Shown here: piece after piece, positions 14,678 through 39,775 of the stretch
How positions within the stretch are numbered: the stretch's first letter is position 1
Layout: each line of letters starts with the position of its first letter
NCBI GenBank assembly: GCA_033762295.1
Contig: JANRLW010000002.1
Coordinates: forward strand, 1 to 48,392
DNA: 48,392 nucleotides
Source: Capsulimonadales bacterium
Lineage (GTDB): Bacteria > Armatimonadota > Armatimonadia > Armatimonadales > Armatimonadaceae
Reading direction: 5' to 3'
Notes under the pieces: generated by a model
Databases searched by the model: none
Told to the model about the DNA's origin: nothing
What the model saw: the letters and a program-made list of their open reading frames with translations, nothing else
Position numbers and translations under genes: made by a program

Positions 14678-16450
14678 TTACGGGGTTACAGGCGACAGGG
14701 TGACTTTTCCGGTTTTTCGGTCGATTCGCACCTCGGTTACGCCGTTCGGGGCAAGATTGGCTCCGGTACGGTCGAACGCACCGGTGAAACGACCGCGCAG
14801 AAGGACGGAGTCATCCTGTCGGGTCACCGTTGGCGCGCCGCCGACCGCTTTGGTCGCGTTGTACGGAAGCACCGTCACCACCTCGCCGCTGACCGGATTG
14901 AAGTAAATCAGCGCACCGGCAACGGGACCGGAATCGTTTCCACCGATCGCGTAGATGACATTATTTTCCCGCTTGTTGAGATAGCGCAGCGACGTGATGT
15001 TACTGGTTCCGGCAGTCACCGAGAACAGGAGAATGCCGTTGGTTCCCGTTTCATCGCTGAGAACCGAATTGATCCGCATGTCCTGGCGCGCGCCGGAGGC
15101 CGTATCCACCGATACAAAGCTACTGAACGCCGCGTCCCAGGTACCCGCCATTCCGTAAAGGAAGCCCGCGCAAGCGGAGGCGACTCTCCCACCGCTACCG
15201 ATCAATGTGCGAACGGTAGCGCCCGGTGTGGGTAACGGGGTTGGCGTCGGTGGGAATACCGGCAGGGAGTGAAGGGGCGAGAGCGAGACCGATCGTGCGC
15301 CATCGGCGATCAAACGTGTGCCGGAAGGCGAAAGAAGATTGTTCAAATAGGCTGCATATTGTCCGTTCTGATAGTCGGTCAGGTAAAGGAGCGGTGTATT
15401 AAAAGAAGAGTTACTCAACTGGTTTGCCCACTGCGGGCGGAAGTAGTTCGCTTCTCCGGGGAAGCCGGTTATGGCTTGCTGATCCTGTCCCTGTGAATCC
15501 ATCGTCCACATCTGACGGAACGATCCGGGCGTCGGGCTCTGCCGGATATAGACGACCGAGAAGCCGCTCAGGATATTTCCGATGTTGGGCACGCCCGGCT
15601 CGAATTCGTTGGCATCGGCGGTGGCGCTCAGGTTCCGGAGTTGAGAACCATCCGTGTGAATCCGCCAGATATCGTAGGTACCGCTACGGTTGCTACTGAA
15701 GAAGAGCGCCTTCCCATCCGGCGACCAGACGGGGTTTCGGTCCTCGCCCGCGTTATTGGTGAGGTTCGTGGCCCCGGTCCCGTTCGTATTCATCAAAAAG
15801 ATATCGCTATTTCCGGAGCGTCGGGAGACGAACGCGATTTTTGTTCCGTCCGGCGACCAGACGGGTTCGGTATCCACGGCGGCGTTATCGGTCAATCGGC
15901 GAACGTTGGTTCCGTCCGAGTTCATCGCATAGATTTCCGAATTGCCGTTTCGGTCGGAAACGAAGACGATTTGTTTGGCGTCCGGGGACCAGGCGGGAAG
16001 CGAATCGTTGGAGGATCCGTCGGTCAATCGATCGAAATCCAGGCTCGGATTACTCTGGTAAATTTCGGTCGGGTTTTTGCTGACGAAGATCGATTCCTTT
16101 CCAAACTGAACGGAGGAAAGTGCGTAGCGAGATCCGGACCAGGTGGTGGGTGTCGGGGAGGGAGTAGGATTGTTCGCCGTTCGCTCTACAATCGAGGTAA
16201 AGGTGGCACCGGCGATACCGGTGACGATGGAAGCGCCCCCGCGCTGAATGACCGGTGTCTGGGTGGTTCCTTCGGCGCGGGTTATAAAGGGGCCGATCGT
16301 TCGCTCCGTGCCCGAGACGGTCGGAGCGGAGGAGGAACCGCTCGAACCGCCACACCCGGCGACGAGCGAGACAGTGACGGCAATACTGACGGTGACCAGC
16401 GCGGCTTCCGGAAGCCAGCGCATCCGGCCGGAATCGATACGAAAAGGCAT
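14678..16450 (-). CDS. Lipoprotein with TolB-like PD40 beta-propeller
   Basis: Lipobox LVAG|C; repeats [42 protein letters not shown]; Pro/Thr linkers; CAGGAG RBS. Confidence 0.85.
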
Positions 16451-16618
16451 GCTTGTCTCTCCTGGGCAGTAACGCGGAAGAAAAGAAATTGGGAATACTG
16501 GAAAAGCGGCGAGCTATGGGGATGCGTTGATAAGACGTCCTGAGAAGTATTGTAGCGAATAAGAAGACTTGCTGCCAGTTGACAAATTTTCGAAGGGGGG
16601 AAAATTTATCGATCCTGG

Positions 16619-18202
16619 TCAGGGACCGAGGGCGATGGCTTCCTGCAAGGTGCGGGTATAGAGGCGGTTGTTGGCGAGAGCGAACGGGGTCAGACTCCAG
16701 GTGCGCCCGGCCGGCCCGAGATCGTTGACCGAAAGCAACGATCCGGCATCCAGAGTTTTCGCGTTGCCGTTGATCACATAGGTCACGCCGAGCATGGTCG
16801 TGAAATAGACTTTGTTGTCCGCCGCAATCGGCGCGGGCAGAAAGTTCCAGTGCCAGCCGTCGCGCCGGGAACGCGGGTCTCCGGCCACATCGAATCCCCG
16901 TCGGTTCTTCGTCTCCGTGGTCTGCGGCGTGTTCCAGACCGGGCGGTCCGGTTCGCCGGGGTTCCGAATCACCTGCACCGGCAGTTCCAGATACTCGACC
17001 TTGCCGGTCTCGATCCCGACACGCCCGACACAGTAGGGCGGGCCGACCTTCGTCTCCGCGTCCGTGAAACAGAGGAAATAGTGCCAGCCGCCCACCGGAA
17101 GGTTCGTATACCAGGCCGGAAAGACCCGGTACGCGGGCGAACGCTTCGACAGGTCGATCCCCGATTCGAGAACGTAGGTCTCCGCTTCCGGATCGTACCG
17201 CCGGTAATCGACCTTTTCGCTCAGGGACTGCGTGCGCAATAGATTCCCGGTCTCGATGTCGAAGACCTGATGCCGGGCGTTGTCAAGGTCGAACCAGTAG
17301 GCGTACTTCGAGTCCCAGTGCATATTGTAAAGGGCTTTTCCGGTCGCTTCGAACCGTCGGATCGCCCGACCTTCCCGACCGGGCGCGAGCGAGGTCAGCG
17401 TCATGCCGACCGGCGATTCCGGGACGTCGTGATAGCCACCCCGCCCGTGCAGGATCGCCCAGGAACCGTCCTTGCGCTTGCCCGGAATCGGAGTGTTGTA
17501 GTGCGTCAGGGCGTCCTCGGAAATCCAGAGCGTTTTGCCGGTATGTTTGTCCAGTCCGCGCAGGTAGTTCCAGGGATCTTTCTCGCGTTTCGGGTCGTTC
17601 TCGTCGCGCGGTTCCATGGTGATCAGCGTCTCGCCGAGAAGAAACGGTTTGAACTGCTTGTTGAACGGCCGACCGCCGGTCGGTTTCCAGGTGCGCAGCC
17701 AGACCTTTTTGCCGTCGAGACGGTAGCAACCGACGCTGCCGCTGGCATTGAAGAACCAGACATGGACCCCGTCGGTGACCGGCGACGGAGTGGTGGAATC
17801 GCTGAACCCGTAGGCGTAGGTCGATGGCTCCGTGCCGGGCAGTGGCACCGACCAGAGAATCTTGCCGGAGAACGCGTCCAGACAGTGCCCGACGATATCC
17901 GCGCCCTCCTTCGGGGCGTCCGCCGACTCCAGAGGCTTCATGGTGGTAAGAAAGATCAGGTTTTCCCAGACGGCCAGTCCGCCCTGCCCGGCCTCGGGTA
18001 GCGGGACGGTCCAGGCGACATTGTCATTCCGGGCGACGCTCCAGAGGATCGGCGCTTTCCGTTTCGTCCGCCCGTTGCCGTCCGGGCCGAAGCCCTGCGG
18101 CCAGATGTCCGACGGCGGACCGGCGGAGACCGGCAGAAGGGCGGCGATGGCGAGGCCGAGGGTCTCGCGGCGAGTCAGGCGTTCCGAAGGAGCGGTACTC
18201 AT
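16619..18202 (-). CDS. Tat-exported PQQ-binding-like beta-propeller protein
   Basis: LTRRETLGL twin-arginine-like motif; WPQGFGP, WTVPLP, CLDAFSGKILW, SPVTDG, GLDKHTGKTLW, TPFALANNRLYTRT. Confidence 0.8.
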   Translation of the reverse strand: MSTAPSERLTRRETLGLAIAALLPVSAGPPSDIWPQGFGPDGNGRTKRKAPILWSVARNDNVAWTVPLPEAGQGGLAVWENLIFLTTMKPLESADAPKEGADIVGHCLDAFSGKILWSVPLPGTEPSTYAYGFSDSTTPSPVTDGVHVWFFNASGSVGCYRLDGKKVWLRTWKPTGGRPFNKQFKPFLLGETLITMEPRDENDPKREKDPWNYLRGLDKHTGKTLWISEDALTHYNTPIPGKRKDGSWAILHGRGGYHDVPESPVGMTLTSLAPGREGRAIRRFEATGKALYNMHWDSKYAYWFDLDNARHQVFDIETGNLLRTQSLSEKVDYRRYDPEAETYVLESGIDLSKRSPAYRVFPAWYTNLPVGGWHYFLCFTDAETKVGPPYCVGRVGIETGKVEYLELPVQVIRNPGEPDRPVWNTPQTTETKNRRGFDVAGDPRSRRDGWHWNFLPAPIAADNKVYFTTMLGVTYVINGNAKTLDAGSLLSVNDLGPAGRTWSLTPFALANNRLYTRTLQEAIALGP

Positions 18203-18203
18203 A

Positions 18204-20264
18204 TCAGGATGTGCCGGGCGGGTGCATGGTGAGATACTGACGATAAAGACTGCAGCGGAAGTCGACCGTGCCGTCCCGGCGTGGCTGGATGATACCCGAG
18301 GCGAGCAGCCGGTAGTACGACGTCTGATCGGTGTTCGGCGTCGCGCTGCCGTCCAGAACGGCGCGGACGAAGCGGGTCACTTCGGGCAGCTTGGAGACCG
18401 ACGCGTGAACGCGCTGCAGGTGATCGGAAAACGGACCGTTGTCACGGGCCGCGTCCTGAATCAGTCCGGCGAAGTCCCATTTGCCGGTCTTCAGCACGTC
18501 GAGGGCGCGTCGGGAAAGGAACGGCTGACCGCCGAGAAGGTCATGGATCTCCTCGGCCTCCTGGTAACTGCCGATCGGACTGCCGTAGCGACCGTTCAGT
18601 TCGAACAACTGTTGCAGGTTGAAGTTTTCCAGATCGAACCGGCGTCCGACATTGAACGGCGACTGGTTGAGGTCCTGAATGAAGAGATGCGCCTCGGTGG
18701 CGTAGGCGATGACCACGGTCAGTTTTTTCCAGGGGCCGTGCGGTTCGGTCGAGCGGGCGTTATGCCAGGAGCGCACCAGACCGAAGAAGTCCGAGGCGAA
18801 CGGTGCGCCGAAGAGTTTATCCACCTCATCCATGCACCAGACGAGCGGTTCGGGGGCGGCCTCGAGCAGTTCGCGCAGGAAGGTTTCCATGTTCAGATTC
18901 GCGCCGAAGATATCGTCCCATTCGTTCTCGAAGTCGTATTTGAACTTGAGCTGTCGGGCGAGGGTGGCGGCGAGAAGGCGATAGAAAACATCCTCGGACG
19001 CCATCTGGGTCGCGGTCAGTTTCTGGAAGTCGGTCAGGCCGACGCGCCAGCCGAGGTCCCGCGACTGCTGCGCCGCCCGCGCCTGCAGGGACGTTTTGCC
19101 CATCTGCCGCGCGCCCTTGATCAGCAGAATGCTTTCCCCGGCGGCGACCGCCTGCTGCATCTCCCGATCGCAGCCGCGTTCGATATAGAAGGGGGAATCC
19201 GGAGGCACCGCGCCGCCGACCGGTTCCAGCCGGATTTCGGTATCGCGCGGCTTGAGCGGTTCCCGGATGGCGGAGATCAGTTCGGCCACCAGCCGCTGGT
19301 CGTCGTCCGGACCGCTCCAGAGGAACTGGTTGAGGGGGCCGATCACGGCCGCGACCGGACCGTTGACATCCTCCTCCTCCAATCCCAGGCGAACCGGAAG
19401 GATCATCGGCTTGCCGGTCTGCTGTTGCTGATCCTGTGCGGTTTCCAGCTCGAATTCGAGCATTTCGCTCTGCAGCGACTGGGGCGAGACGACGGCGATG
19501 ACGGCGTCGGCCTCCCGAATCCGCTCCTCGACCTCCTTCAGCCAGGCGCTGCTGACCTTGCGCCCCCGGTCGACGTACACACTCAACCCGTCCGCCCGGA
19601 GACGTTCCTCCAGGTAGGCAAGCATCTGCTCGTCGGCCTGCTCCCCGCGTCGATAGAGAATGGCGACCCGGGGAACCGAACCGGCGGCGGCGACCAGGGG
19701 TTGCAGTTTGCGTGGCGTATCGGTCCGTCCGAAGCCGTCGCCATGGATCATCGAAACGGAGAGGCGCAGGTTATGTTTGGCCACACCTTCGCCGCCCGCC
19801 TTGACCAGGGGCTGGAAGTCGTCAAACTGCGTCAGCCAGGTCGCTGACAGCGCGGAGAGCAGGATGTGACCGTCATCGCCGAAATCCATCACTCGCTGGG
19901 CGGTATTCACGCCCTCGCCGACGATGTTCTCGTTGCCGGCGATGTCGAGTTGCCGGTAGACCAGGCCGCTATGGATGCCCATACGGACCGGGATCGGCGG
20001 CGGGGTTTTCAGAGCGCGGGCGATCTCGATCGCGCAGCGCACGGGGGCGGTCACATCCTCCCAGAAGAGCAGAATCATGCCGTCGCCCGTCGCCACCGGC
20101 TGTGCCGCGCCGCGCTCCCGGGCGGCGCTATACGTGGGCGCGCCGTTGACCGCGGCGTTCAGTCGCTCCATCGTCAGCGGCTGTACGGTCATGCTCAGTC
20201 GGGAGAAACCGACGATATCCAGAAACAGGACATGGGCGATCTGGGCGTTTTGGGCGTCGGACAT
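18204..20264 (-). CDS. Class III nucleotide cyclase - TIR - AAA_35 (STAND-like NTPase) fusion protein
   Basis: Cyclase FLDIVGFS/TGDG/RMGIHSG/VNTAQRV; TIR-like ILYRR..D/VYVD/ADAVIAVVSPQSLQSEMLEFEL; AAA_35 GGAVPPDSPFYIER/GARQMGKTSL/MDEVD/QSPFNVG/GGQPFL. Confidence 0.88.
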   Translation of the reverse strand: MSDAQNAQIAHVLFLDIVGFSRLSMTVQPLTMERLNAAVNGAPTYSAARERGAAQPVATGDGMILLFWEDVTAPVRCAIEIARALKTPPPIPVRMGIHSGLVYRQLDIAGNENIVGEGVNTAQRVMDFGDDGHILLSALSATWLTQFDDFQPLVKAGGEGVAKHNLRLSVSMIHGDGFGRTDTPRKLQPLVAAAGSVPRVAILYRRGEQADEQMLAYLEERLRADGLSVYVDRGRKVSSAWLKEVEERIREADAVIAVVSPQSLQSEMLEFELETAQDQQQQTGKPMILPVRLGLEEEDVNGPVAAVIGPLNQFLWSGPDDDQRLVAELISAIREPLKPRDTEIRLEPVGGAVPPDSPFYIERGCDREMQQAVAAGESILLIKGARQMGKTSLQARAAQQSRDLGWRVGLTDFQKLTATQMASEDVFYRLLAATLARQLKFKYDFENEWDDIFGANLNMETFLRELLEAAPEPLVWCMDEVDKLFGAPFASDFFGLVRSWHNARSTEPHGPWKKLTVVIAYATEAHLFIQDLNQSPFNVGRRFDLENFNLQQLFELNGRYGSPIGSYQEAEEIHDLLGGQPFLSRRALDVLKTGKWDFAGLIQDAARDNGPFSDHLQRVHASVSKLPEVTRFVRAVLDGSATPNTDQTSYYRLLASGIIQPRRDGTVDFRCSLYRQYLTMHPPGTS

Positions 20265-20332
20265 AAAAGACTTTCGCGGAACCGGGGTCACGGGAGACAA
20301 CCGTCCGGCGGAACGGTACCTCGTGCCTCCCT

Positions 20333-20408: not shown

Positions 20409-20437
20409 TTGACGGTCGGCACGCCGGATGATATAGT
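20409..20437 (+). promoter_or_regulatory. Sigma70 promoter of tRNA-Trp
   Basis: TTGACG-N17-TATAGT with extended TGn, 21 nt upstream of the tRNA. Confidence 0.85.
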
Positions 20438-20458: not shown

Positions 20459-20530
20459 GGGGGTGTAGTTCAGTGGTAGAACGTCGGTCTCCAAAACCGA
20501 ATGTCGTGGGTTCGAGTCCTGCCACCCCCG
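20459..20530 (+). tRNA. trnW: tRNA-Trp (CCA); 3' CCA not encoded
   Basis: Acceptor GGGGGTG/CACCCCC, G discriminator, D arm GTTC AGTGGTA GAAC, anticodon arm TCGGT-CTCCAAA-ACCGA, T arm GTGGG-TTCGAGT-CCTGC. Confidence 0.97.
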
Positions 20531-20657: not shown

Positions 20658-21554
20658 ATGCTCCGCCTTTCTTCCGCACGTTCCGGCGGCTTTACGCTGA
20701 TCGAACTGCTCGTTGTTATCGCTATCATCGCGATTCTTGCCGCCATCCTGTTCCCCGTTTTCGCCCAGGCCCGTGAAAAGGCCCGACAGACGTCCTGTCT
20801 CTCCAACTGCAAACAGATCGGTCTCGGTCTGTTCATGTACGTCCAGGATTATGACGAACGCTATCCCGGCGCGCTGCAGTCCGTTCCGCCCATCAATGGC
20901 GGCAGCACGACGGACCGACGTATGCCGCTGGATCGACAGCTTGACCCGTACGTCAAGAACGACCAGATATGGCGATGTCCGAGCGATTCCGTGCGCGGCT
21001 TCCCCGCCAGCGATACCCGGATTCAATTCTGGGACGGAACCTACCGTGCGCGTAGCCTCTTCCGCTCCTACCAGTATGTGGCGGAAATCTACACGGTCGC
21101 CGGTGTCGCCGCCGCCGGTGGGGCCGCGGTTCGTGATACCAATACCGGTCTCAGCACCTACGCCGGGAACGCCGCCTACGATTCGCCGAACCCGGCTCGC
21201 GGCAAGGTTCTCGCCCAGATCGACCGCCCGTCGGAAACCATCGCCATTCTCGAAGCCTGGGTCAATGACCCGGCCGGGTTTACCAATGTTTCCTATGTCG
21301 GCAGCTCGCATAGCATGGTATTTACCAACTGCGATGCCTGGAAACTGGCCGGACGCGACCCGCTCCGTACCGACGGCATCCACTCGCTCGTGCCCTGCGG
21401 CCCCGATACCCGCAAGCCGACCATGGGACATATGAACGGAGCGAACTATGTGATGGCGGACGGCTCCGCCAAGTACCGCACCTGGGGAGACGTCCGCGGG
21501 AACGACTTCTACCTGTTCAAGCTGCAGAAGCCGACGACGGTCGTGACCCCGTAA
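20658..21554 (+). CDS. DUF1559 prepilin-like protein with H-X9-DG motif
   Basis: [69 protein letters not shown]. Confidence 0.92.
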
Positions 21555-21563
21555 CGCGACCGA

Positions 21564-23540
21564 TCACGGCCAGAACCCGTACATCGGGATGCCGGAAGCC
21601 ATGCTGAGCAGAGTCCAGAGGCTTCCGGCGACACACTCGCCCAGAATCACTCCGTAGAAGAGGGGCAGCAACGCGCGAAACAGCGGAAGACCGCCGTATC
21701 GCAAGATCAGAACCTTCAGGACCCAGGCGATCAGCATCGGCATCCAGAGGATGCCCATTCCCCACGACGAAGCGACGGCATACCCGACCGGATGGAAGGG
21801 GAAGCCGACGATCCGCATCCGAAGAAAATTCAGCAGAAGGGCGAACGCCGTTCCGACCCCGATAGCGATGGTCGCGCCGGTCTGGGGCGGTTGCGGGACG
21901 CGCACCTGCGAGCGAAAACGGTTCCATGGCTCGCTGCCGAAGATGGTGAAGACGTTCGGCGGACCGATGATCGCGCTTTCCGCTCCGTGGACGTAGCACA
22001 GGTGCAGGATCGCCCAGAACGCCAGCGCCGGTCCGACAAACCCCAGCACAAGCATCAAACCGAACAGAACCCGCGAAAAACTCCGCTGTTCCCGTCCGAA
22101 ACCGCCGCGTGACGCCGAGGCCAGCGCTTCCAGCTGGATCGGCATCGGATGGCCGCGATAGGCCCGGTTGAACCCGTAAAACAGTCCGAACAGAGTCAGC
22201 GTCTGCCGATCCACGCTGGTCGGTCCCATCACCTGCGGCAGGATGGTGTCGGGGCCGCCCATATGCAGATCGTGCACCGGCGGCCCTAGCTCCCCGCGCA
22301 TCCGGGTCACCGCCAGCGCGATCGCGAGGTAGATGACCCAGAACGCGGCAATATAAAAGGGCGACATTCCGGCGAACCGGCAGAACGCGCTGAGCAGGAT
22401 CATACCGATCAGGATCACCGCCGCCGCCGCGCGGTAGGAAATCGGGCTGTCGGCATCGTCCGGGGACGCGGGATGATCCCCCCAGAGATAGCCGAAGATC
22501 GTTTTCAGATGATGCCGACCGAGATAGAGCGCGGTCAGCGAGACTCCGAGATAGCCGCCGAGCGACTGCGCCGTCACATACGGAAAATTCGGGGTCCGGT
22601 CCCAGGCCATCGCCGCGCTGACGACCGCCTGCCCCTTCCAGAACCAGAAGAAGAACCAGGACGAGAACAGGAAATCCACCGGCAAAAACATCCCGAGCGC
22701 AATACCGAAGGGGTAGAACCCGATCGGAACCGTGCCGACCGCGCTCCACGGGCGATCCGAGAAGAACCGGTAGTCGGTCACTTTGATCGGCAGCATCGGC
22801 ACCGACGGATAGAGAAACGCCAGGCCGTTCCAGAACTGGAGCAGTACGGCGAGGGCGAAGCCGATCCATAAAAGCGGGCTGCGGAAGAGGGGCGTATCGG
22901 GCCGCGTGATCTCCAGCGGGATGGTCAGGATCGGAAAGGGGAGTCGTTCCCGTTCGGTCCACTGTCGGCGCAGCAGAACGTTCATCGCCAGCATTACCGC
23001 GCAGAGCACCCCGAAAAAGGCGCACCAGAACCCCAGCGGGACGATCCACGCCTGCCAGTTCTGCGGACGATAGAGCGAATCATGACCGGTATAAAAGGCA
23101 TCGAGCGCCGCCCTGTCGGTGACGACGAGCCACCGGGGAAGATGCGGCAGCAGTATCTCCGCCCAGTTGTTGGCCGCGTCCGCGTGCTGGTGCGCGTGCG
23201 ACAGGATCGGCAACAGCACCTCCGCCATGTCGTGCCCGGAAAGAGCCGAGGTCATCTGCAGGCTGAAATAGATCAGCAGCAGTTCGCCCCGGTGGAACGC
23301 CGCTTTCGGCGCGAACCGGCGCAGCAGGGCATTGACCGGGAGCAGCAGGCAGAGCCAGAAGATGCAGTTGTAGTAAAGCGAGGTCGTGGTCGGATGCCCG
23401 GCGTACCGGACGGTCTCGCTGAGAATGACCCAGTACGCGTTGAGCGGGAGCAGCACGGCTAGCGTGAGAAGCAAACGTGCGCGGAGCGGGAATCGTCCGG
23501 CCTCGTTGTCGGTCGCCATCGTCGTCGCAGGCGGTTGCAT
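21564..23540 (-). CDS. DUF6785/DUF6784 (OPT-transporter-like) polytopic membrane protein
   Basis: Many TM segments; RRQWTERERLPFP, RMRGELGPPVH, FPFHPVGY, YGGLPLFR...FYGVILGE; paralog at 37736. Confidence 0.78.
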   Translation of the reverse strand: MQPPATTMATDNEAGRFPLRARLLLTLAVLLPLNAYWVILSETVRYAGHPTTTSLYYNCIFWLCLLLPVNALLRRFAPKAAFHRGELLLIYFSLQMTSALSGHDMAEVLLPILSHAHQHADAANNWAEILLPHLPRWLVVTDRAALDAFYTGHDSLYRPQNWQAWIVPLGFWCAFFGVLCAVMLAMNVLLRRQWTERERLPFPILTIPLEITRPDTPLFRSPLLWIGFALAVLLQFWNGLAFLYPSVPMLPIKVTDYRFFSDRPWSAVGTVPIGFYPFGIALGMFLPVDFLFSSWFFFWFWKGQAVVSAAMAWDRTPNFPYVTAQSLGGYLGVSLTALYLGRHHLKTIFGYLWGDHPASPDDADSPISYRAAAAVILIGMILLSAFCRFAGMSPFYIAAFWVIYLAIALAVTRMRGELGPPVHDLHMGGPDTILPQVMGPTSVDRQTLTLFGLFYGFNRAYRGHPMPIQLEALASASRGGFGREQRSFSRVLFGLMLVLGFVGPALAFWAILHLCYVHGAESAIIGPPNVFTIFGSEPWNRFRSQVRVPQPPQTGATIAIGVGTAFALLLNFLRMRIVGFPFHPVGYAVASSWGMGILWMPMLIAWVLKVLILRYGGLPLFRALLPLFYGVILGECVAGSLWTLLSMASGIPMYGFWP

Positions 23541-32560: not shown

Positions 32561-35211
32561 GCCCGCTCCTGAACGATCGTCACGGTCGCTTTACCCCGGA
32601 CGGTGAGGATCAACCGTCCTCCTTCGCGCCGAAACGCCGCGTTCGTCCGCTCGCTTCCGATCATGACACGTATCGGCGGTTGTGTCAAGCCCGTCACGAG
32701 AACCTGATAGGGGCCGTCCGGCCAGCCGGTGACGGTGAAGGCGTATTGCTTCGGCGGTTTCGGGACGGGGACGATCCGACCGGGGGCGTGGACGAACGGA
32801 CCGCCCGGCGCGAGCATCCGGCGTTCGTACAACGGACGACCGATGCTTCGCAGGTAAGGAACCTGCTGAGTCGCCGGATTGATGGCGACATCGTTCCGTA
32901 TCTGCCCCGGCAGGTGGAAACTGTCCGGGAGCAGCCCCTGCCGCGCCCGATCGCTGCCCGGAGACCCGGCTGCCGGCCAGGTTTGCTGAATCCCGGAGAC
33001 GACGATGCCGTCCGCCAATCGTTTCCAGATGCCTTGCGGATCGTGCACCGCGAGATCGTAGAGAGCGTTGGCGTAGACCAGGCCGCACCACTGCACCGGC
33101 AGTCCGATCCAGTTCGGGGCGACCCAGTGCGTCGCCCCGAGGACCGGGGTCGTGGCATAGACGCCGACCGGATGTTCGGGCACCGGGGCGCGCAGGTAGG
33201 TGAACGGAACCCCGGTCCAGGCCCAGTAACGCGCCTGTTCGAGGAAGGTGCGCTGTCCCGATAGCTCATAGCCGAGGACGAAGGCGCGGACGAGATGAGC
33301 GGACGCCAGAATGTCGGGCGTGTGCAGCGGGACTTCCCACGTCTGCGCCCCGCGCGGGACGCTGTCCCGGTAGGCCGCCGCCACACGTTTCAGTACGGCC
33401 AGCCCGTTCCGGCGCAGTTCCGGGTCGCCGGTCAGGACCGCCGCCTCGAGCACGGTCGCGATCGCCTCCCCGGAGATGCCGTTCGCATGGTCGGCAAAAT
33501 GCGTCGAACCGAAGTCCGGTCGCTCCGCCGTTTTCTCGTAACGAACCGTTCCGTCGGGCCGAAAACGGGTCAGCGCCTCACGGCCCCTCTGCCGCACCCG
33601 GTCCAGATTCTCGGGGACCTTGCCGTGGACGAGCGGCGCGGCGAACGTTCGCACATGCCCGATGCCGGAGAACGCCCGGTCGGCGGAGGGCACCTGCCGG
33701 ATCGCCGTTCGGGCCGCGCCTGTCAGTTCGGCGACGAGGTTCGGCGCAACTCCCAGAAGACGGGCCAGAACCGCCTGACAGAGCGCGGCGTCCGCCGCGG
33801 GACCCGCCCCGAAGTCGCCGGGATAGGCGTGCCGATACGCGTTTCCGACCCGGATGCGGGATGAGAGCCAGCCGGACGCCAGCAGATGCGCGACCGTCGG
33901 AACCGAATACGTCGCCGGAGGTTTCGGCAGCCCCGTCAGAGCGACATACGCTTTGACGGCTTCGGTGACGTTCGTGCCCGTGCCGCCGAGAAGGGTCGCG
34001 CGGACGACCAGCGGCGTGTTCGCCTTGAGAAGTCGCGAGGCGTAGGGCAGGACCCCGCCCGGCGGACGTTCGTGGTCGCCGAGGTTACCGGGGAGATGCA
34101 GCGCCATCACCTGACCGCCCGAACCGAAGCGGCGGTCCGGCGTGTCGAAGTACGGGGCGACCCACTCCGTCGGCTCCCAGGCCAGCGCCAGCCACCGCCC
34201 TCCCTGAACGAGCGCCATCAGGGGCAGGGTCAGCATATGAGGCAGCGGCATCTGACGTTGGGATTGCTCACCGCGCAGGTCCGCCTCGCTGCTGCTGGTA
34301 TCGGGCGCGTCCAGGTATTCCACCCCGGCGAAAAGCCCCTGCGCCTTCTTCGTCCCGAAACCGCCCATCCCGCAAAACAGCGTCAACAGGGGAAAGAATG
34401 CGAGGAAGCGGTCGGCGGAGACGGTCAGGGTAAGTCGAAGCCGGAGAACGCCGGGGCGCGGGTCGGTATCGATCCGCTGTTCGAACGTCCAGAGTCCGCC
34501 GTCGGCGTCGAGCGCCTGCCCGGTCACGGATTCGCCCGATCGTTTCCAGCTGAAAAAGCCTTTGTCCGGAACATACCGTGCGTCCATCCATTGCAGCGGG
34601 GCGTCGGGGCGCGTCTGATAGCCGATATACGGGCGATTGTTGCCGACGGCGAACAGTTGACCGTCGACGCCGACCGCGAAATGGCCCCAGCCTTCGGCGT
34701 GTTTGACGGCGAGCGGACCGTGGAGGACCGTCTGCACGACCGTCTCCGCGTTCGTCGGAACGGTCGGCGTTGGCCATGTCGGCTCGGTCAGCAGGACGCG
34801 CGGCGTGACGTCCATCCGGGAGATCACGGTGGCATCGCCGGCCCCGCCCGGCGGATCGAAGCGGAAGCGCATGGTCGGGGCCGGCAGCGGCGGCAACGGG
34901 ACCTTGATCTCGGTCGGGCGACCGCCGCGCACGGCAAAGCGCACCGAGTCCGGTTCGGACGGGCCGCCGTCGGCTCGGAAGTGGAAGATCTGTCCGAGGC
35001 CGTTGCGGTCCGCGGTGAGGCGGACGGTCAGCCAGAGCGGGATATTGGCGGGGACCGTGACGGGCGGGCCGACGGTATAGGGATCGCCACCGTTCGCCTC
35101 GATCCGCAGGCCGTTCGGGTCCGGCTTCAGAGCGGCGATGTCGTGCGTCGCCTGCCATCCCTGTCGCCCGGCGTCGGTTGTAAAATCGAAAAGAGGCGTT
35201 GTTGATTGCAT
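32557..35211 (-). CDS. Large hypothetical protein, possibly carbohydrate-active
   Basis: 884-aa ORF with GC-rich codon usage. N-terminus resembles a CBM-like module (GGDPYTVGP, LRFDP-like FRFDP). The aromatic-rich helical C-terminal part (AYE..G...FLEQARYWA-like) suggests an (alpha/alpha) barrel. Function is inference. Confidence 0.7.
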   Translation of the reverse strand: MQSTTPLFDFTTDAGRQGWQATHDIAALKPDPNGLRIEANGGDPYTVGPPVTVPANIPLWLTVRLTADRNGLGQIFHFRADGGPSEPDSVRFAVRGGRPTEIKVPLPPLPAPTMRFRFDPPGGAGDATVISRMDVTPRVLLTEPTWPTPTVPTNAETVVQTVLHGPLAVKHAEGWGHFAVGVDGQLFAVGNNRPYIGYQTRPDAPLQWMDARYVPDKGFFSWKRSGESVTGQALDADGGLWTFEQRIDTDPRPGVLRLRLTLTVSADRFLAFFPLLTLFCGMGGFGTKKAQGLFAGVEYLDAPDTSSSEADLRGEQSQRQMPLPHMLTLPLMALVQGGRWLALAWEPTEWVAPYFDTPDRRFGSGGQVMALHLPGNLGDHERPPGGVLPYASRLLKANTPLVVRATLLGGTGTNVTEAVKAYVALTGLPKPPATYSVPTVAHLLASGWLSSRIRVGNAYRHAYPGDFGAGPAADAALCQAVLARLLGVAPNLVAELTGAARTAIRQVPSADRAFSGIGHVRTFAAPLVHGKVPENLDRVRQRGREALTRFRPDGTVRYEKTAERPDFGSTHFADHANGISGEAIATVLEAAVLTGDPELRRNGLAVLKRVAAAYRDSVPRGAQTWEVPLHTPDILASAHLVRAFVLGYELSGQRTFLEQARYWAWTGVPFTYLRAPVPEHPVGVYATTPVLGATHWVAPNWIGLPVQWCGLVYANALYDLAVHDPQGIWKRLADGIVVSGIQQTWPAAGSPGSDRARQGLLPDSFHLPGQIRNDVAINPATQQVPYLRSIGRPLYERRMLAPGGPFVHAPGRIVPVPKPPKQYAFTVTGWPDGPYQVLVTGLTQPPIRVMIGSERTNAAFRREGGRLILTVRGKATVTIVQERA

Positions 35212-35653
35212 GAGATCGTTAACGAAAAGGTATCAACAACCGGGAAGAATGACGTTCCCATCTTCGACAGGCGCGAAATGAGCGATAGGAACCGGTTGTA
35301 AGAACGTCACCATCCCGTTCCCGCAAGGTTTCCTATTTCTCCCGAGGCTATTCCTCCTATGATAGCACGGAATGACCATCGGGCGGTTACCGGTCCCTTC
35401 CTCAGGCACAGATTAAATTCGGATCGAATCCCATTCGTTCAATTTCTTCCTCCCTTACTTGAATCCTGCCGTTTCCCTCTCGACTCCATAGGAGAAATAA
35501 TACGTCTAACGTGCAGGCTATTGCGGTGCCAGAATGAAGGCGGACTGCGACGCACGGCAGCGGTGACGAATGCGTAAGGAGTGTGCTGAAGGCTCTGACG
35601 TATCCTTCAGCACTTCGTGTCACGGGTATTCAGCCGAAAGTTTTGGAAGGCAC

Positions 35654-36310
35654 ATGGCTAAGTTTTCAAACTTCTTCGTACTCCTCTCCTTTATAGCTCT
35701 GGTTAGTGCCGGCTGTCAGTCGGGAAGTGATGGTCAATCGAAAAGTGACTATGTTCCCATGTTGGATCAGGCAACTCTGGATGCTATGAAGAAAGATGCG
35801 GAAACTTATCGGTACATGCGTGGTGAAGATCTGGAGCGTTTGAAGCGGATGTCGAATGCTATCGTCAACCAGGAACGTGATCCGACAACGGAGGAGGTGC
35901 GCTACGCGCTTTCCGTCACCCGACAGGCGGAACGTTCCGTTAACGTTCTGCTTTGTAAACGGTTAAATTATGATTACTCACTCCATGTGATTACGATGGG
36001 CGATTCCGTTCCTGAGGCGGTTCGGGAGGAGGTATTTCAGTTCGGCGTTCGCCTTTCACAGATGACCTGGGACAACCAGAAGGGCGTAATGCCCAAAGAG
36101 ATACCCGACACACCCGAGAACCGAAAAGAAGTGATCGATAGTTACCTCTTCCAGGCATCAGAAATGTTGCGTGCGTCCGGCGACCCACGAGCCATACCCT
36201 ATCTCAAAAAATTGAGCGCTTTTCCGTCGCCTGTGGACGAAAAGGCTGGGAGGGAGCTTAAGAATTTGCGAACGATATTGGAGAAACGAAAGAAGGGAGA
36301 AAGCAGATGA
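35654..36310 (+). CDS. Hypothetical lipoprotein (AT-richer islet)
   Basis: GGAAGG RBS, MAKFSNFFVLLSFIALVSAG|C lipobox, HEAT-like GDPRAIPYL near C-terminus. Confidence 0.75.
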   Translation: MAKFSNFFVLLSFIALVSAGCQSGSDGQSKSDYVPMLDQATLDAMKKDAETYRYMRGEDLERLKRMSNAIVNQERDPTTEEVRYALSVTRQAERSVNVLLCKRLNYDYSLHVITMGDSVPEAVREEVFQFGVRLSQMTWDNQKGVMPKEIPDTPENRKEVIDSYLFQASEMLRASGDPRAIPYLKKLSAFPSPVDEKAGRELKNLRTILEKRKKGESR

Positions 36311-37095
36311 TTCGGTGGATTCCGCGCTTGATAACGGCGTCGGGTTTGTTGCGGACGGGCCGGAGAATGGCTACCACAAGACCATTATACCGGCAACGCA
36401 CTAAATTCTATAGCCAACCGGTAAAGCGAGGAATTGCGTTTTCGTTAATCGAATTGCTCGCGGTGGTCGCCATAATAGCTCTGGTCACCGCCATCACGTT
36501 CGCAGTTTTCATGCAAAGCCGGACAAAAAGTCGAGAAACCGTATGCCTTTCCAACCTGCGGCAAATCGGCCTGGGAATCCTCGCCTATGCTCAGGATTAT
36601 GATGGCGGATTGCCTCCATCCGGAAGTCCTATTGATCTCAAGACGACGCTCTGGAGCAGTATTTATGCGGAAATTAAGACCATGAAACCGCTACCGGAAT
36701 TATTGGCTCCCTATATAAAACAGAATGATCTTTGGCGGTGTCCGTCCGATGTCGGTTTTGACCGTAGCGGCTGGGTCGAAGAGGTGTATTTCCCGTCGTA
36801 TCCCTCGTCATTTCAGGCCCATGGGACCTCCTACTTTTACAATATGTTTGCATACCTGGAGGGAAAATCGCTCGCGAATATGCGAGTGTACGACCCTGCA
36901 CCGCCGCACGCCGAACACGGAGCATCGGTCGTCAAATTGATGGCGGATGGATCCGGACGGTGGCATGGAGGAAAAAGTCCGAAGGACCATCGTTTCGGTT
37001 GCCTGTTCGCCGACGGTCATGTCCGGTTCGTTAGCCGTGACCAGATGAGCGAGATCGAAGGACGGACGTTCGGTTCCCCCCCTCCCTCTCCATAA
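36307..37095 (+). CDS. DUF1559-like prepilin-type protein (start 36307 or 36367)
   Basis: GIA|FSLIELLAVVAIIAL, CLSNLRQIG, YAQDYD, WRCPSD, CLFADGHV. Confidence 0.88.
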   Translation: MIRWIPRLITASGLLRTGRRMATTRPLYRQRTKFYSQPVKRGIAFSLIELLAVVAIIALVTAITFAVFMQSRTKSRETVCLSNLRQIGLGILAYAQDYDGGLPPSGSPIDLKTTLWSSIYAEIKTMKPLPELLAPYIKQNDLWRCPSDVGFDRSGWVEEVYFPSYPSSFQAHGTSYFYNMFAYLEGKSLANMRVYDPAPPHAEHGASVVKLMADGSGRWHGGKSPKDHRFGCLFADGHVRFVSRDQMSEIEGRTFGSPPPSP

Positions 37096-37133
37096 CCTTC
37101 AGTGATTCCCGGGTAGTACGTCGGAGAAAAACG

Positions 37134-37634
37134 ATGCCGCTGAAAATTGGTACCCCCTTACCTGCACTGACGGATGTTTCTCGATGGTGGAATGTCAATG
37201 GGGAGTTTTCGACCCCTCCCGGTCCGATTCTCGTCCATTTCTGGGCGATGTCCTGCCCCGTGTGCAAAATGAACCTTCCGGTTTTGAACGAGTACCGAGA
37301 CCGTTATGGTCCCCTCGGTCTATCGTTTATTTCCGTTCATATGCCACGGGGACCATTCGACCTCGATACGGGAGAGTTGGAAGAGGCCCTTTGTACTTTG
37401 CAAATGACCGAACCCTGCGCTGCGGATAATCGGCATGTTCTGGGTCAACGATTCGATACCGAAGGAATGTGGCCGGTTTATTACCTTTTTGATCATGATA
37501 GTCGGTTGAAACGTTATGCCGCAGGGACAATCGGCGTTCGATTGCTGGCTCCCGTACTGGAAAGACTCTTTAGCCGAGGGATTTGTCAGGAGTTTCTGTC
37601 GCTCTTTCCCGGTCTCTTCCGCAACCTGTTGTGA
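37134..37634 (+). CDS. YkuV/TlpA-like thioredoxin-fold oxidoreductase
   Basis: HFWAMSCPVCK CxxC, SVHMPR, WPVYYLFD; GGAG RBS. Confidence 0.85.
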   Translation: MPLKIGTPLPALTDVSRWWNVNGEFSTPPGPILVHFWAMSCPVCKMNLPVLNEYRDRYGPLGLSFISVHMPRGPFDLDTGELEEALCTLQMTEPCAADNRHVLGQRFDTEGMWPVYYLFDHDSRLKRYAAGTIGVRLLAPVLERLFSRGICQEFLSLFPGLFRNLL

Positions 37635-37735
37635 ATCCTTTCGACGAATCTGACACTGATGAATCGTCCGTAGTGATGGAAGCGAACAGAGAGGCAACCT
37701 CTGTAGTACTAAAATGTAAACAATAACGGACTGAC

Positions 37736-39667
37736 TTATTGGTCCCAGCCCATTTTGCCGTTGATGCTGATGCTGTAGGTCAACTGGCGGTCGTTCAGCA
37801 TCGAGTAGACGGCCCAGATCAGTTCGGCGGTGAACTCCCCGGTCACCAGACCGATGGCGAGTTCGCGCAGTTTCAAGGTTCCTTTCAGGCCGTAATACCG
37901 CTGAACGAAAAATTTGATGATCAGGACGATCAGCAGGCCGAACCAGTAGTAGTCGACGCCGAAGTTCATCGCCAGAGCGTACCCCGCCGGATGCAGCCAG
38001 AACCCGGGTACCCGGAACCGGATGAAGTCGAGGAGCAGGACGACACCGAACCCGAGGGCGACTGCCAGCATGGCGAACGGGTTGGGCGCGCGCGGCGTTC
38101 CCTGAATCTGGGAAATGATCCCCGAAACCTCGCCCGCGACCCACGGGTTGGGCGTCCACCGGTAGCCCAGGTAGATATGGGTCAGACAACCGCAGACCGT
38201 ACCGAAAATGATGGCGATAATCAACGCCCCGAAGATCACTCCCTGAGACATCCCGACCCGGTCCGCCAGGTACTGCGCCTCCAGCAGGGTCGGCTGCGGG
38301 TGCGTCCGGTGCAGTCGGTTCATGATATGGAACGTCGTCATCGTCCGCGCCACCAGCGCCTGATTCAGTCCCGCGGTCCCGTTGAAATCGATCACCATCT
38401 GGTGCGGCCCCATAAAAGCCATCTCGTGGGTCGGCGCGCCGAGCTGAGCGCGAAGGCGGGTCACCGCGATCGAGAAGATCAGGTAGAGGCCGATATAGAA
38501 CAGAACCCATTCGAACGGCAGGCCGATCAGCAGACCGAACATCCCCAGACCGAACAGGCAAAACGCCAGAAGGAGGGCGACGAAACGGTACGAGAGGCCG
38601 TTGGGGCGTAGGTCGTCCGTCCGGTTCAGGAAGATGGCGTCGCCGATCTTTTTCCAGTGCGGGCGGGCGAGCCACATACCGGAGAGAAAGAGAGCGGCGA
38701 ACGCGCCCCAGCTCTGCTCGCTGAAGTAGGGCGGTGACGGGAAGAGACCGCCGCCGCCGAAGACGCCCTGCTCGTTGCCGAGGATATAGGCGAAGATCTG
38801 GGTGATTTTGCGGACGAAGAAAAAGAAGAGCAGCGAGAAGAGCAGATCGGTCGGCATGAAGAAGCCGAGAGCGCTCATATAGGGGAAGATGCCGATCGGG
38901 GTCCATCCGGTCTGGTTCATCGGCGGCGACGTGAAATACCGGTTCAGGTCGTCCAGAAATCGGATTTTCAGCGTCGGTATCTGCGGATAAAGAATGCTGA
39001 ATCCGTTGATCATGTCGATCGTGAAGACCAGGACGAAGGCGGTCCACAGAAGTCGGCTTTTCCAGACGCTGTTCGGGCCGCCCGCGTCGGCGATGGCGAG
39101 CGGAATCTGGACGATCGGGAAGGACAGCTTTTCCTGGTAGATCCACTGCTCCCGCAGCAGGGCGTTGATGCAGAGCATCGCCGTCGAGAGGAGGGTGATG
39201 AACGCGGTCCAGGCTCCGATTTTAGGCCACCAGAGCGGAAGCTGCGAGAGGAAGAAAGCGAACGATTTTCCGCCGTCGCGGAAATCCTTGAGGGCAGCCG
39301 GGTCCTTCAGAAAGAGCAGGTCCGAGAGAACCGGCAGCAAACGCTCCCGGTACTGGGCGTTCGTTTCCGAGTACGCGCCGAATCCGTAGATCTGGGGAGC
39401 GAACATATCCATCCATTCGCCGGACATCGCGCAGGCGACGGCGAGCATGGCGTAGAGGATGATGATCTCCGCTCCGGACAGAGCGATACGCGGCAGGACG
39501 CGCCGAAACGGGATGTTCAGCACAGCAACAACCATGGTCAGGGCGACCGGCGGAACCATGAGCGAGAAGATACGGTCGATCCCCTGATCCTGCGACCAGA
39601 AACAACAGAACGGCGTCAGCAGAATGCCAAGAAGAAGGGGCCGCAACACGCGGAACCACGAATTCAT
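37736..39667 (-). CDS. DUF6785/DUF6784 (OPT-like) polytopic membrane protein, second paralog
   Basis: Start MNSWFRVLRP; EQWIYQEKLSFP, RLRAQLGAPTH, FWLHPAGY, GLVTGE. The tracked 991-aa ORF includes a spurious extension antisense to 39776-41110. Confidence 0.8.
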   Translation of the reverse strand: MNSWFRVLRPLLLGILLTPFCCFWSQDQGIDRIFSLMVPPVALTMVVAVLNIPFRRVLPRIALSGAEIIILYAMLAVACAMSGEWMDMFAPQIYGFGAYSETNAQYRERLLPVLSDLLFLKDPAALKDFRDGGKSFAFFLSQLPLWWPKIGAWTAFITLLSTAMLCINALLREQWIYQEKLSFPIVQIPLAIADAGGPNSVWKSRLLWTAFVLVFTIDMINGFSILYPQIPTLKIRFLDDLNRYFTSPPMNQTGWTPIGIFPYMSALGFFMPTDLLFSLLFFFFVRKITQIFAYILGNEQGVFGGGGLFPSPPYFSEQSWGAFAALFLSGMWLARPHWKKIGDAIFLNRTDDLRPNGLSYRFVALLLAFCLFGLGMFGLLIGLPFEWVLFYIGLYLIFSIAVTRLRAQLGAPTHEMAFMGPHQMVIDFNGTAGLNQALVARTMTTFHIMNRLHRTHPQPTLLEAQYLADRVGMSQGVIFGALIIAIIFGTVCGCLTHIYLGYRWTPNPWVAGEVSGIISQIQGTPRAPNPFAMLAVALGFGVVLLLDFIRFRVPGFWLHPAGYALAMNFGVDYYWFGLLIVLIIKFFVQRYYGLKGTLKLRELAIGLVTGEFTAELIWAVYSMLNDRQLTYSISINGKMGWDQ

Positions 39668-39775
39668 ACTGGACAGGTTCGTTCCGGCGGCACGGCGTTC
39701 CTTCCGGGGAAGGGTTTTCGGTCCGCCGGGGGGAACGTAACGCCAAATCCCGAACCCGAATGAAGGATGCAAGCA

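Follow-up and report, generated by a model that had tools for sequence, protein, structure and literature searches.

A cyclase-TIR-AAA_35 protein of an Armatimonadota bacterium as the possible output half of an NLR-like switch split over two proteins

Results

Architecture of P0001

Here, we describe P0001, a protein encoded in a 48,392-base window of genomic DNA from a Capsulimonadales bacterium, whose single chain runs from a class III nucleotidyl cyclase through TIR to an AAA_35 NTPase module. The window is one entire contig (C2) of a 132-contig, 5.16-Mb assembly that is 94% complete; a look-up of RNA or DNA sequencing runs listed none. Considering the conservation of its motifs, its relatives' gene neighborhoods and structure models, we judge the chances to be about even that P0001 is the soluble output subunit of a split, two-protein AAA_35 switch resembling the nucleotide-binding receptors with leucine-rich repeats (NLRs), in which a second AAA_35 protein, here called type B, would act as the receptor.

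The three-domain architecture, already proposed in an initial annotation made from the sequence, was found by several routes: Pfam, a profile of 67 full-length homologs (33–72% identical to P0001), over which all residue conservation reported below for P0001 was counted, and comparison with Foldseek of an AlphaFold2 model of the whole protein, built on the homolog alignment (mean predicted local distance difference test (pLDDT) 93.1, predicted template modelling score (pTM) 0.62). The top Foldseek match was the TIR and NB-ARC part of the plant TIR-NLR RPP1 (E 4.9e-12, ~550 columns), followed by class III cyclases and then by the archaeal ATPase PAB2304 and ORC2. An NCBIfam scan of P0001 matched no family (best E 0.15). 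All of the motifs on which the initial annotation was built (FLDIVGFS, TGDG, VNTAQRV, NIVG, SEMLEFEL, GARQMGKT and MDEVD) are present in the translation.

For the cyclase domain, the Guanylate_cyc match in Pfam is short (residues 90–146) and, at 25.0 bits, lies above the cut-off (21.9). The best solved match of the 67-homolog profile was the cyclase domain of Rv1900c (1ybt; residues 8–146, E 5.9e-11), which is the closest in fold as well (target TM 0.77–0.78, within a range of 0.59–0.81 for solved class III cyclases in Foldseek); it is 22% identical and linked to other partner domains. Both metal-binding Asp residues are kept in nearly all homologs (D16 of FLDIVGFS in 63/67, D61 of TGDG in 65/67), as is the transition-state pair of VNTAQRV (N120 in 66/67, R124 in 65/67). 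The residues that select the base were said to be altered, and both are indeed non-canonical, with the correction that the adenine-selecting Lys position is occupied by V57, four residues ahead of D61, and not by P56. Homologs carry L (41/67), I (17/67) or V (4/67) at this position, and the second base-selecting residue, N113 of NIVG, is kept in 58/67. Neither of the canonical purine-selecting pairs (Lys/Asp for ATP, Glu/Cys for GTP) is found in P0001, and since V57 and N113 take their place, the product is not readable from the sequence; the cyclase may therefore yield an unusual cyclic nucleotide. Rv1900c also departs from the canonical Lys/Asp pair. Elsewhere in the same genome, contig C77 (60122-61447; L035:5126-6448, minus strand) encodes a 441-residue protein that joins a cyclase, 41% identical to that of P0001, to PASTA, so that by sequence this cyclase subfamily appears to be used in another receptor-like setting as well.

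The middle domain was matched by both TIR_2 (residues 200–303, 62.2 bits, cut-off 28) and the Pfam TIR family (32.3 bits, cut-off 21.3), and together with the RPP1 match this bears out its assignment as a TIR fold. E272, in SEMLEFEL, is invariant (67/67), and its aligned counterparts are the "EYEL" Glu in 7uxr and the "FE" Glu in 6wt6, which we take to be the catalytic Glu of those TIR proteins; the residue needed to cleave nicotinamide adenine dinucleotide (NAD) thus appears to be retained, as the initial annotation held. Because their catalytic residues are present and conserved in homologs, both the cyclase and the TIR domain look like active enzymes.

The AAA_35 family matched residues 351–679 at 253.1 bits (gathering score 27), with 4–330 of its 331 profile positions aligned. 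K390 of Walker A and D479 and E480 of Walker B are each invariant in 67/67 homologs, and a QSPFNVG motif lies at residues 534–540. G579-Q-P581, placed by the model in the helical part, and H615, in the winged-helix part, are invariant too and are candidates for the GxP motif and the MHD-type His of NB-ARC. When the 67-homolog profile was compared with solved structures, nothing was found for the AAA_35 part beyond P-loop matches. The module modelled alone (pLDDT 95.8, pTM 0.92) was compared with 48,161 PDB representatives using VIA-align. The nearest solved folds were PAB2304 (2qen; Z 21.6, root-mean-square deviation 3.9, 308 aligned) and SSO1545 (2fna; Z 21.2, 307 aligned), yet these are only 11–15% identical and, unlike P0001, stand alone without output domains; their entry titles name no function. 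Plant NLRs came next, with wheat G10 (9h2l; Z 17.2, 290 aligned) and the TIR-NLR WRR4A (9qlv; Z 16.9), then Cdc6/Orc1 (15.5), CED-4 (15.3), MalT (14.9), Avs5 (14.1), NAIP/NLRC4 (13.2) and Avs3 (12.5). Since the modelled NTPase superposes on the NB-ARC folds of NLRs (Z 16.9–17.2), the earlier label "STAND-like" (for signal transduction ATPases with numerous domains) is fair as far as the predicted fold goes, which places the module at the junction of ATPase_2, ORC and STAND proteins. The chain ends 5 residues past the AAA_35 match, and neither Pfam nor the model shows a repeat domain; the C-terminal sensor repeats expected of NLR-type STAND proteins are in this family carried not on the same chain but by the type-B paralog.

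Pairing with type-B proteins

Two types of AAA_35 protein can be distinguished. Type A, to which P0001 belongs, consists of an N-terminal output and a full AAA_35 module without repeats. In type B, AAA_35 stands at the very N-terminus (Pfam positions about 3–250 of 331) and leads into a long tail that mostly bears WD40 propellers. A type-B gene directly adjoins the type-A gene in 7/7 fetched loci, which surround homologs in relatives and the C70 paralog of P0001 (pair at 20964-23165 and 23107-28170 of C70). For a broader count, open reading frames (ORFs) in 78 loci of named genomes were classified with two hidden Markov models, built from type-A and type-B proteins. We found 59 paired loci, 7 in which the gene is orphan although 2 kb or more of sequence is available on each side, and 12 loci that were uninformative owing to contig ends; in other words, 59/66 informative loci are paired. 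The type-A gene comes first in 50 of the paired loci and the type-B gene in 5, and in the other 4 the two lie on opposite strands; among the close orthologs of P0001, B then A is the prevailing order. Because the family is normally paired with a repeat-bearing type-B protein, P0001 does not appear to be self-contained, and the initial proposal of a system working within one protein gives way to that of the output half of a two-gene pair.

Type-B proteins retain Walker A, Walker B and the SPFNxG motif without exception (30/30), and for this reason both partners look like active NTPases. In 3 of 5 longer homologs (P0269, P0270 and P0271), A and B modules even occur within one predicted polypeptide. 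These are apparent fusions, being either true A-B fusions or read-through of overlapping genes, owing perhaps to sequencing errors. P0269 is laid out as kinase, A, B, hydrophobic segment and WD40, and another as trypsin, TIR, A, B and TPR.

A P0001 that senses its own trigger and homo-oligomerises through its NTPase, without any partner, would fit the orphan state of the window copy, in which every motif is intact, and the 7/66 informative loci that are likewise orphan. It would have to do so with a chain that stops at the winged helix and in which neither repeats nor any other candidate sensor domain are seen; the predominance of paired loci, the apparent fusions, and three orphan type-B genes in the same genome (see below) further argue against it, and we regard this explanation as improbable.

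Just past the NTPase, at residues ~330–450, 29/30 type-B proteins have exactly one strongly hydrophobic 19-mer (Kyte-Doolittle > 1.6), preceded by an Arg-rich stretch. Hydropathy analysis of P0001 revealed no such 19-mer. In the type-B protein of contig C73, the segment (about residues 379–397) is followed by an Ala/Arg/Glu-rich, coiled-coil-like stretch. Given a single pass and an NTPase that is necessarily cytoplasmic, the type-B propellers are predicted, by hydropathy alone, to lie outside the cytoplasmic membrane.

The two partners differ in their rates of change. Across three genome pairs, identities for type A, the type-B NTPase and the rest of type B were 96.6/81.6/61.5%, 84.0/75.9/43.3% and 64.0/61.9/23.9%; judging from these alignments, the receptor part of type B clearly changes fastest, with tail figures that are rough since repeats align poorly. 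In one genome (G035), two tandem type-B genes (L024:11428-14895 and 15015-19433, minus strand) lie upstream of a single cyclase-TIR-AAA_35 gene. Their NTPases are 78.9% identical and their tails 25.5%, which looks like a receptor duplication followed by divergence. Three ortholog loci (L023, L025 and L036) hold three family genes each, namely a second type A, with a SARP-type or unrecognised N-terminus, a type B and a cyclase-TIR type A, and one type-B receptor may serve two outputs there.

Outputs and distribution of the family

A search of 1.84 billion representatives of 50%-identity clusters returned 12,817 matches at E ≤ 0.001, of which 2,101 reach E ≤ 1e-30. Many of these span residues ~198–681 alone, that is, the TIR domain and AAA_35, with differing N-termini. 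We classified the N-termini of 58 such TIR-AAA_35 representatives with Pfam and found a second TIR (15), a protein kinase (13), DUF4145 (3), a cyclase alone (2), CHAT (1) and caspase (1); 7/58 carried BTAD of the SARP type, in some cases together with a DNA-binding domain (2 of the 7 also with a cyclase), and in 16 none was recognised. By domain content, then, the TIR-AAA_35 core appears constant, with the cyclase as one among many interchangeable N-terminal modules. The 120 best rows of a word-indexed search all had AAA_35 and TIR_2 (identity 52–72%, coverage 82–100%), with an N-terminal kinase added in 6. In the ESM Atlas, a cluster of 201 members has the architecture of P0001, and there are also AAA_35 clusters with helix-turn-helix (HTH) N-termini, mainly cyanobacterial.

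This modularity bears on the analogy, drawn initially, with the Pycsar defence system. Under a Pycsar- or Pucsar-like logic within one chain, the cyclase product would bind to TIR, either in the molecule that made it or in a sister molecule, and activate it. Pycsar and PucsarTIR do likewise combine TIR with a class III cyclase (10.64898/2026.08.12.744502, accessible part), and the cyclase-AAA_35 paralog on contig C18 weakly matches PycC (E 1.3e-6). P0001 itself has no PycC match at E ≤ 1, and Pfam found no domain for binding cyclic nucleoside monophosphates (cNMPs) in P0001 or in 31 scanned window proteins. With the cyclase being an exchangeable module besides, the analogy is weak, and we think it very unlikely that P0001 works in this way.

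The family occurs at least in Armatimonadota, Acidobacteriota, Verrucomicrobiota, Bacillota, Actinomycetota, Pseudomonadota and on cyanobacterial plasmids, with the best named homologs of P0001 coming from Armatimonadota (Chthonomonadaceae, Fimbriimonadaceae and Capsulimonas); an ortholog is present in the culturable Capsulimonas corticalis. Full-length matches were found in 7/40 relatives, 4 of them with an identity of at least 61%. At E ≤ 1e-50, carriers made up 2/10 genomes of genus g14, 0/5 of g6 and 4/4 of g7. Among plasmid records, 51/72,556 matched the family. On one of these (AP024153.1 of Abditibacteriota; L121, 23792-28178), the genes of a TIR-AAA_35 and a type-B protein overlap, both annotated "hypothetical protein", and a XerC recombinase gene flanks the pair on each side. 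Near-identical A and B genes (branch lengths 0.003–0.04) were observed in a Blastocatellia metagenome-assembled genome (MAG; L104) and a Clostridia MAG (L110), that is, in bins of different phyla, which is either recent transfer or a binning error.

Genomic context and a candidate partner in trans

P0001 departs from the family pattern in that no type-B ORF, nor a remnant of one, was found across the entire contig; the absence of adjacent sensor repeats or a second AAA_35 partner, noted initially, thus extends to the whole window. Coordinates are given in Table 1. Upstream of P0001 lie ~195 bases, a tRNA-Trp gene and then a divergent pseudopilin-like DUF1559 gene. While weighing the possibility of a genomic island at this tRNA gene, we noted that P0001 sits on its 5' side. 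A sigma-70-like promoter match at 20409-20437 lies just upstream of the tRNA gene.

Table 1. Features of P0001, its neighbors in the window and its type-A paralogs.
Feature	Position	Strand	Basis or remark
P0001 coding sequence, cyclase-TIR-AAA_35, 686 residues	18204..20264, including stop codon	-	ORF, translation, Pfam
Alternative TTG start of P0001, 12 codons upstream of ATG	18204..20300 (ORF from this start)	-	ORF list
Class III nucleotidyl cyclase domain, residues ~8-175	19740..20243	-	Pfam, profile, Foldseek, conservation
TIR domain, residues ~198-335	19260..19673	-	Pfam, alignment, Foldseek match to RPP1 TIR + NB-ARC
Glu272 codon, invariant	19449-19451	-	Homolog alignment
AAA_35 module, residues ~346-681 (nucleotide-binding, helical and winged-helix domains)	18222..19229	-	Pfam, model, alignment
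Walker A, GARQMGKTS (K390)	19089..19115	-	Alignment
Walker B, VWCMDEVD (D479, E480)	18819..18842	-	Alignment
tRNA-Trp (CCA) gene	20459..20530	+	Between P0001 start and DUF1559 gene; orthologous loci carry type B there
PQQ_2-like beta-propeller gene, 527 residues	16619..18202	-	One base past P0001 stop; Pfam
Own-genome type A, C70: cyclase-TIR paralog, 52% identical to P0001			Genome search
Own-genome type A, C18: cyclase-AAA_35			Pfam
Own-genome type A, C116: SARP-AAA_35			Pfam
Own-genome type A, C42: N-terminus unrecognised			Pfam

The genome contains 12 further matches to P0001, with type A represented by 5 genes (P0001 included) and type B by 6. Three of the type-B genes, on contigs C73, C48 and C71, are orphans in housekeeping surroundings. 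In a FastTree phylogeny of 64 type-B NTPase modules, C73 and C42 fall in a clade of 4 rows (SH-like support 99), of which the remaining two are the partners of P0001 orthologs in G006 and in an Armatimonas MAG. In the corresponding type-A tree (93 rows), P0001 belongs to a 14-row clade (support 98) together with orthologs that adjoin type-B genes. P0001 is most likely an output half that has become separated from its receptor and works in trans with an orphan type B, for which the C73 gene (47387-51697) is, from these trees, the best candidate.

A complex prediction for residues 340–686 of P0001 with residues 1–490 of the C73 type-B protein scored 0.41, against 0.00 for the best of three controls, which lends weak support to this pairing (custom alignments; contact agreement between runs at least 73%, partner pLDDT at least 80). 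The mark used for such predictions was reached by 116/157 solved complexes and 2/215 mismatched pairs; scores of 0.60 or less comprised just 18 of the 157 solved complexes and both passing mismatches. Because the two chains are paralogs from families with solved oligomers, the pass may reflect likeness alone.

The missing partner could also mean that P0001 is the decaying, functionless leftover of a broken pair. Its 686 codons are open, with a third-position GC of 0.81 that is typical for genes of the contig, all of the catalytic and family-invariant residues are kept, and the NTPase module is 69% identical to that of the nearest ortholog; decay is hence, to us, hardly credible.

Directly downstream, the PQQ_2-like gene is probably co-transcribed with P0001, and by eye the N-terminus of its product (RRETLGLAIAALLPVSAG) resembles a twin-arginine export signal. 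The next gene downstream encodes a PD40 lipoprotein (14678-16450). Both were considered as conserved stand-ins for the missing sensor and rejected: homologs of the PQQ-like gene are absent from all 92 fetched loci, and those of the PD40 gene occur in 2 of 92 (L025 and L106). In a synteny check for an insertion, the best relative with a PQQ-like gene (G010, 71% identity) otherwise shared nothing with the window over 19.9 kb.

Elsewhere on the contig, GC content dips to 0.52–0.53 at 35001-38000, compared with 0.58–0.69 on the rest, which could point to foreign DNA; a 246-residue ORF within this stretch (35570-36310) had no Pfam match. Two paralogous large membrane proteins of the uncharacterised DUF6785 and DUF6784 families are encoded at 21564-23540 and 37736-40711 (both minus strand), the latter with an N-terminus ~350 residues longer.

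Discussion

The domains, the conserved motifs, the pairing counts, the orphan state and the apparent A-B fusions are observed in the sequence data; membrane topology, co-assembly, enzyme activities and the role in the cell are deduced from them. If P0001 is indeed the output half of a split switch, a mechanism can be outlined as follows. Binding of a ligand to the type-B ectodomain, with its WD40 or other propellers, would drive the ATP-dependent co-assembly of type-B and type-A NTPases at the inner face of the membrane. Class III cyclases form their active sites only across a dimer interface, and induced proximity could pair the cyclase domains into active dimers. The same assembly would pack the TIR domains into an NAD+-cleaving array. 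The cell would then make a cyclic nucleotide, whose base is not predictable, and consume or convert NAD+.

What such a switch would be used for is a closer call. The balance tips slightly towards a conflict or stress response, such as an abortive-infection-like reaction or dormancy signalling, over routine physiology, and an immune role of the family is plausible. It could, as the other possibility, serve ordinary outside-in signalling, with type B sensing a cue from the envelope or environment and type A setting the level of a cNMP, perhaps of an NAD-derived signal, or gene expression, and with TIR as a scaffold or signal generator instead of a killer. The predicted membrane anchor of the partner, with propellers outside the cytoplasm, would suit this well, as would the SARP/BTAD, HTH, kinase and cyclase outputs of relatives, the cyclase-PASTA protein of the same genome, the good conservation of type A, and the scattering of the genome's 5 type-A and 6 type-B genes among housekeeping genes. 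Neither the window nor 16 homolog loci gave a clear link to defence islands. The TIR Glu is nevertheless invariant (67/67), as expected for an enzyme; relatives carry caspase, CHAT and double-TIR outputs in addition to kinase modules; presence is patchy even inside a genus (2/10 in g14); the family is carried on plasmids, with one pair lying between two recombinase genes; and the receptor part diverges fast. We consider ordinary signalling a serious but less probable alternative to a conflict-related split switch.

For the search for defence genes, we used PADLOC. P0001 gave weak matches alone, to TIR (best Aga_TIR, 1.6e-7) and P-loop models (PDC-S01, 5.6e-4), in line with the initial impression that this is not a characterised system. 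Of 85 loci extending 5 kb or more to each side, the first 16 had their neighborhoods scanned (129 neighbor proteins), and 12 proteins in 8/16 loci matched at E ≤ 1e-5, a count that comes without a background control.

Several observations weigh against a split switch with a role in conflict. Among 16 window proteins, PADLOC found 2 weak P-loop-type matches and no defence genes, and its models match neither of the two AAA_35 types, A and B. Strong PADLOC neighbors (E < 1e-20) occurred in 5/16 loci, again without a background control, and one of them is probably DNA polymerase I. A search of 50,697 phage records for the family gave no match. The outputs of relatives include SARP, HTH DNA-binding, kinase and cyclase domains of the sort typically seen in ordinary signal transduction; with 52–72% identity across families of the phylum, type A is well conserved, unlike many immune proteins; and an outward-facing sensor, as predicted here, is unlike the cytoplasmic phage sensors of NLR type. 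As for the switch itself, the type-B membrane helix is read from hydropathy, and one plasmid-borne type-B protein has no hydrophobic segment at that place. P0001 has no adjacent partner, and the model therefore needs an interaction in trans, for which the complex score with C73 falls in the weak band. We found no experimental study of the AAA_35 A/B family in the literature searched.

By fold and logic, the systems nearest to the proposed switch are plant TIR-NLRs and paired or helper NLRs, and by components Pycsar and Pucsar. In plant TIR-NLRs (RPP1, 7dfv and 7crc; WRR4A, 9qlv), as in P0001, TIR immediately precedes a module of nucleotide-binding, helical and winged-helix domains, and oligomerisation of the NTPase creates the TIR NAD-cleaving enzyme (NADase). 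P0001 differs in being bacterial, in having AAA_35 instead of NB-ARC, an added N-terminal cyclase and no repeats on the same chain, and in that its family's sensor is a separate, predicted membrane-anchored paralog. Paired and helper NLRs (NAIP-NLRC4, 8fvu; RRS1/RPS4; NRC networks) share with the A/B pair the use of two paralogous NTPases, one carrying the sensor and the other the output. The orphan A and B genes within one genome suggest a network, as with helper NLRs. Unlike in paired NLRs, a membrane-spanning sensor is predicted for the A/B pair, whose genes mostly lie side by side in bacteria, and co-assembly has weak support from the complex prediction.

Pycsar and Pucsar share with P0001 the combination, in one putative system, of a TIR NADase with a cyclase of class III type. 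In P0001, however, both are fused to an NTPase instead of being joined by a diffusible signal, and the cNMP-binding domain is missing. Avs and bNACHT proteins likewise have an effector N-terminal to a STAND-type NTPase; in the P0001 family, a second protein carries the sensor, which is predicted to be extracytoplasmic, and no PADLOC model for Avs or NACHT matched. The initial comparison to Avs- and NLR-like STAND proteins therefore holds for the NTPase fold and would fail for the predicted placement of the sensor, as the sensors of Avs and classical NLRs work within the cell. We know of no phage phenotype for the P0001 family.

In a small number of full-text literature searches, we found no paper naming the AAA_35 pair, and "PF14516" occurred in 0 papers. 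In their accessible parts, Kaur et al. 2020 (PMC7159879) and Kaur et al. 2021 (PMC8195603) deal with cNMP cyclases and with TIR and STAND modules as parts of other conflict systems and do not describe the pair. In the accessible text of 10.64898/2026.08.12.744502, cNMP cyclases that are fused to STAND NTPases are reported as an "immune clade 1", a point in favor of a conflict role. Seven supplementary files of PMC13581612 contain none of the terms "AAA_35", "PF14516" and "cyclase", and the accessible part of a preprint on Thoeris (10.64898/2025.12.03.692087) held nothing relevant to the pair.

A more far-reaching possibility, which we put forward tentatively and hold to be less probable than the split switch as such, is that these proteins make up an undescribed class of transmembrane, split NLR-like receptors, with extracytoplasmic propellers and interchangeable executioners connected in a many-to-many network. 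Executioners with TIR, cyclase, kinase, caspase or DNA-binding outputs would be engaged by a signal that crosses the membrane and passes from NTPase to NTPase, and orphan A and B genes would form a network of receptors and executioners like the sensor and helper NLRs of plants. P0001 would then fire two outputs together, NAD+ cleavage and a non-canonical cNMP.

The value of the P0001 window itself is more modest: it holds a single, intact orphan member of the family and is a test case for pairing in trans. For the family, if true, the split switch would be a bacterial NLR-type switch with separate sensor and executioner, in which the sensor faces outward, making it a hybrid of Toll-like-receptor and NLR logic.

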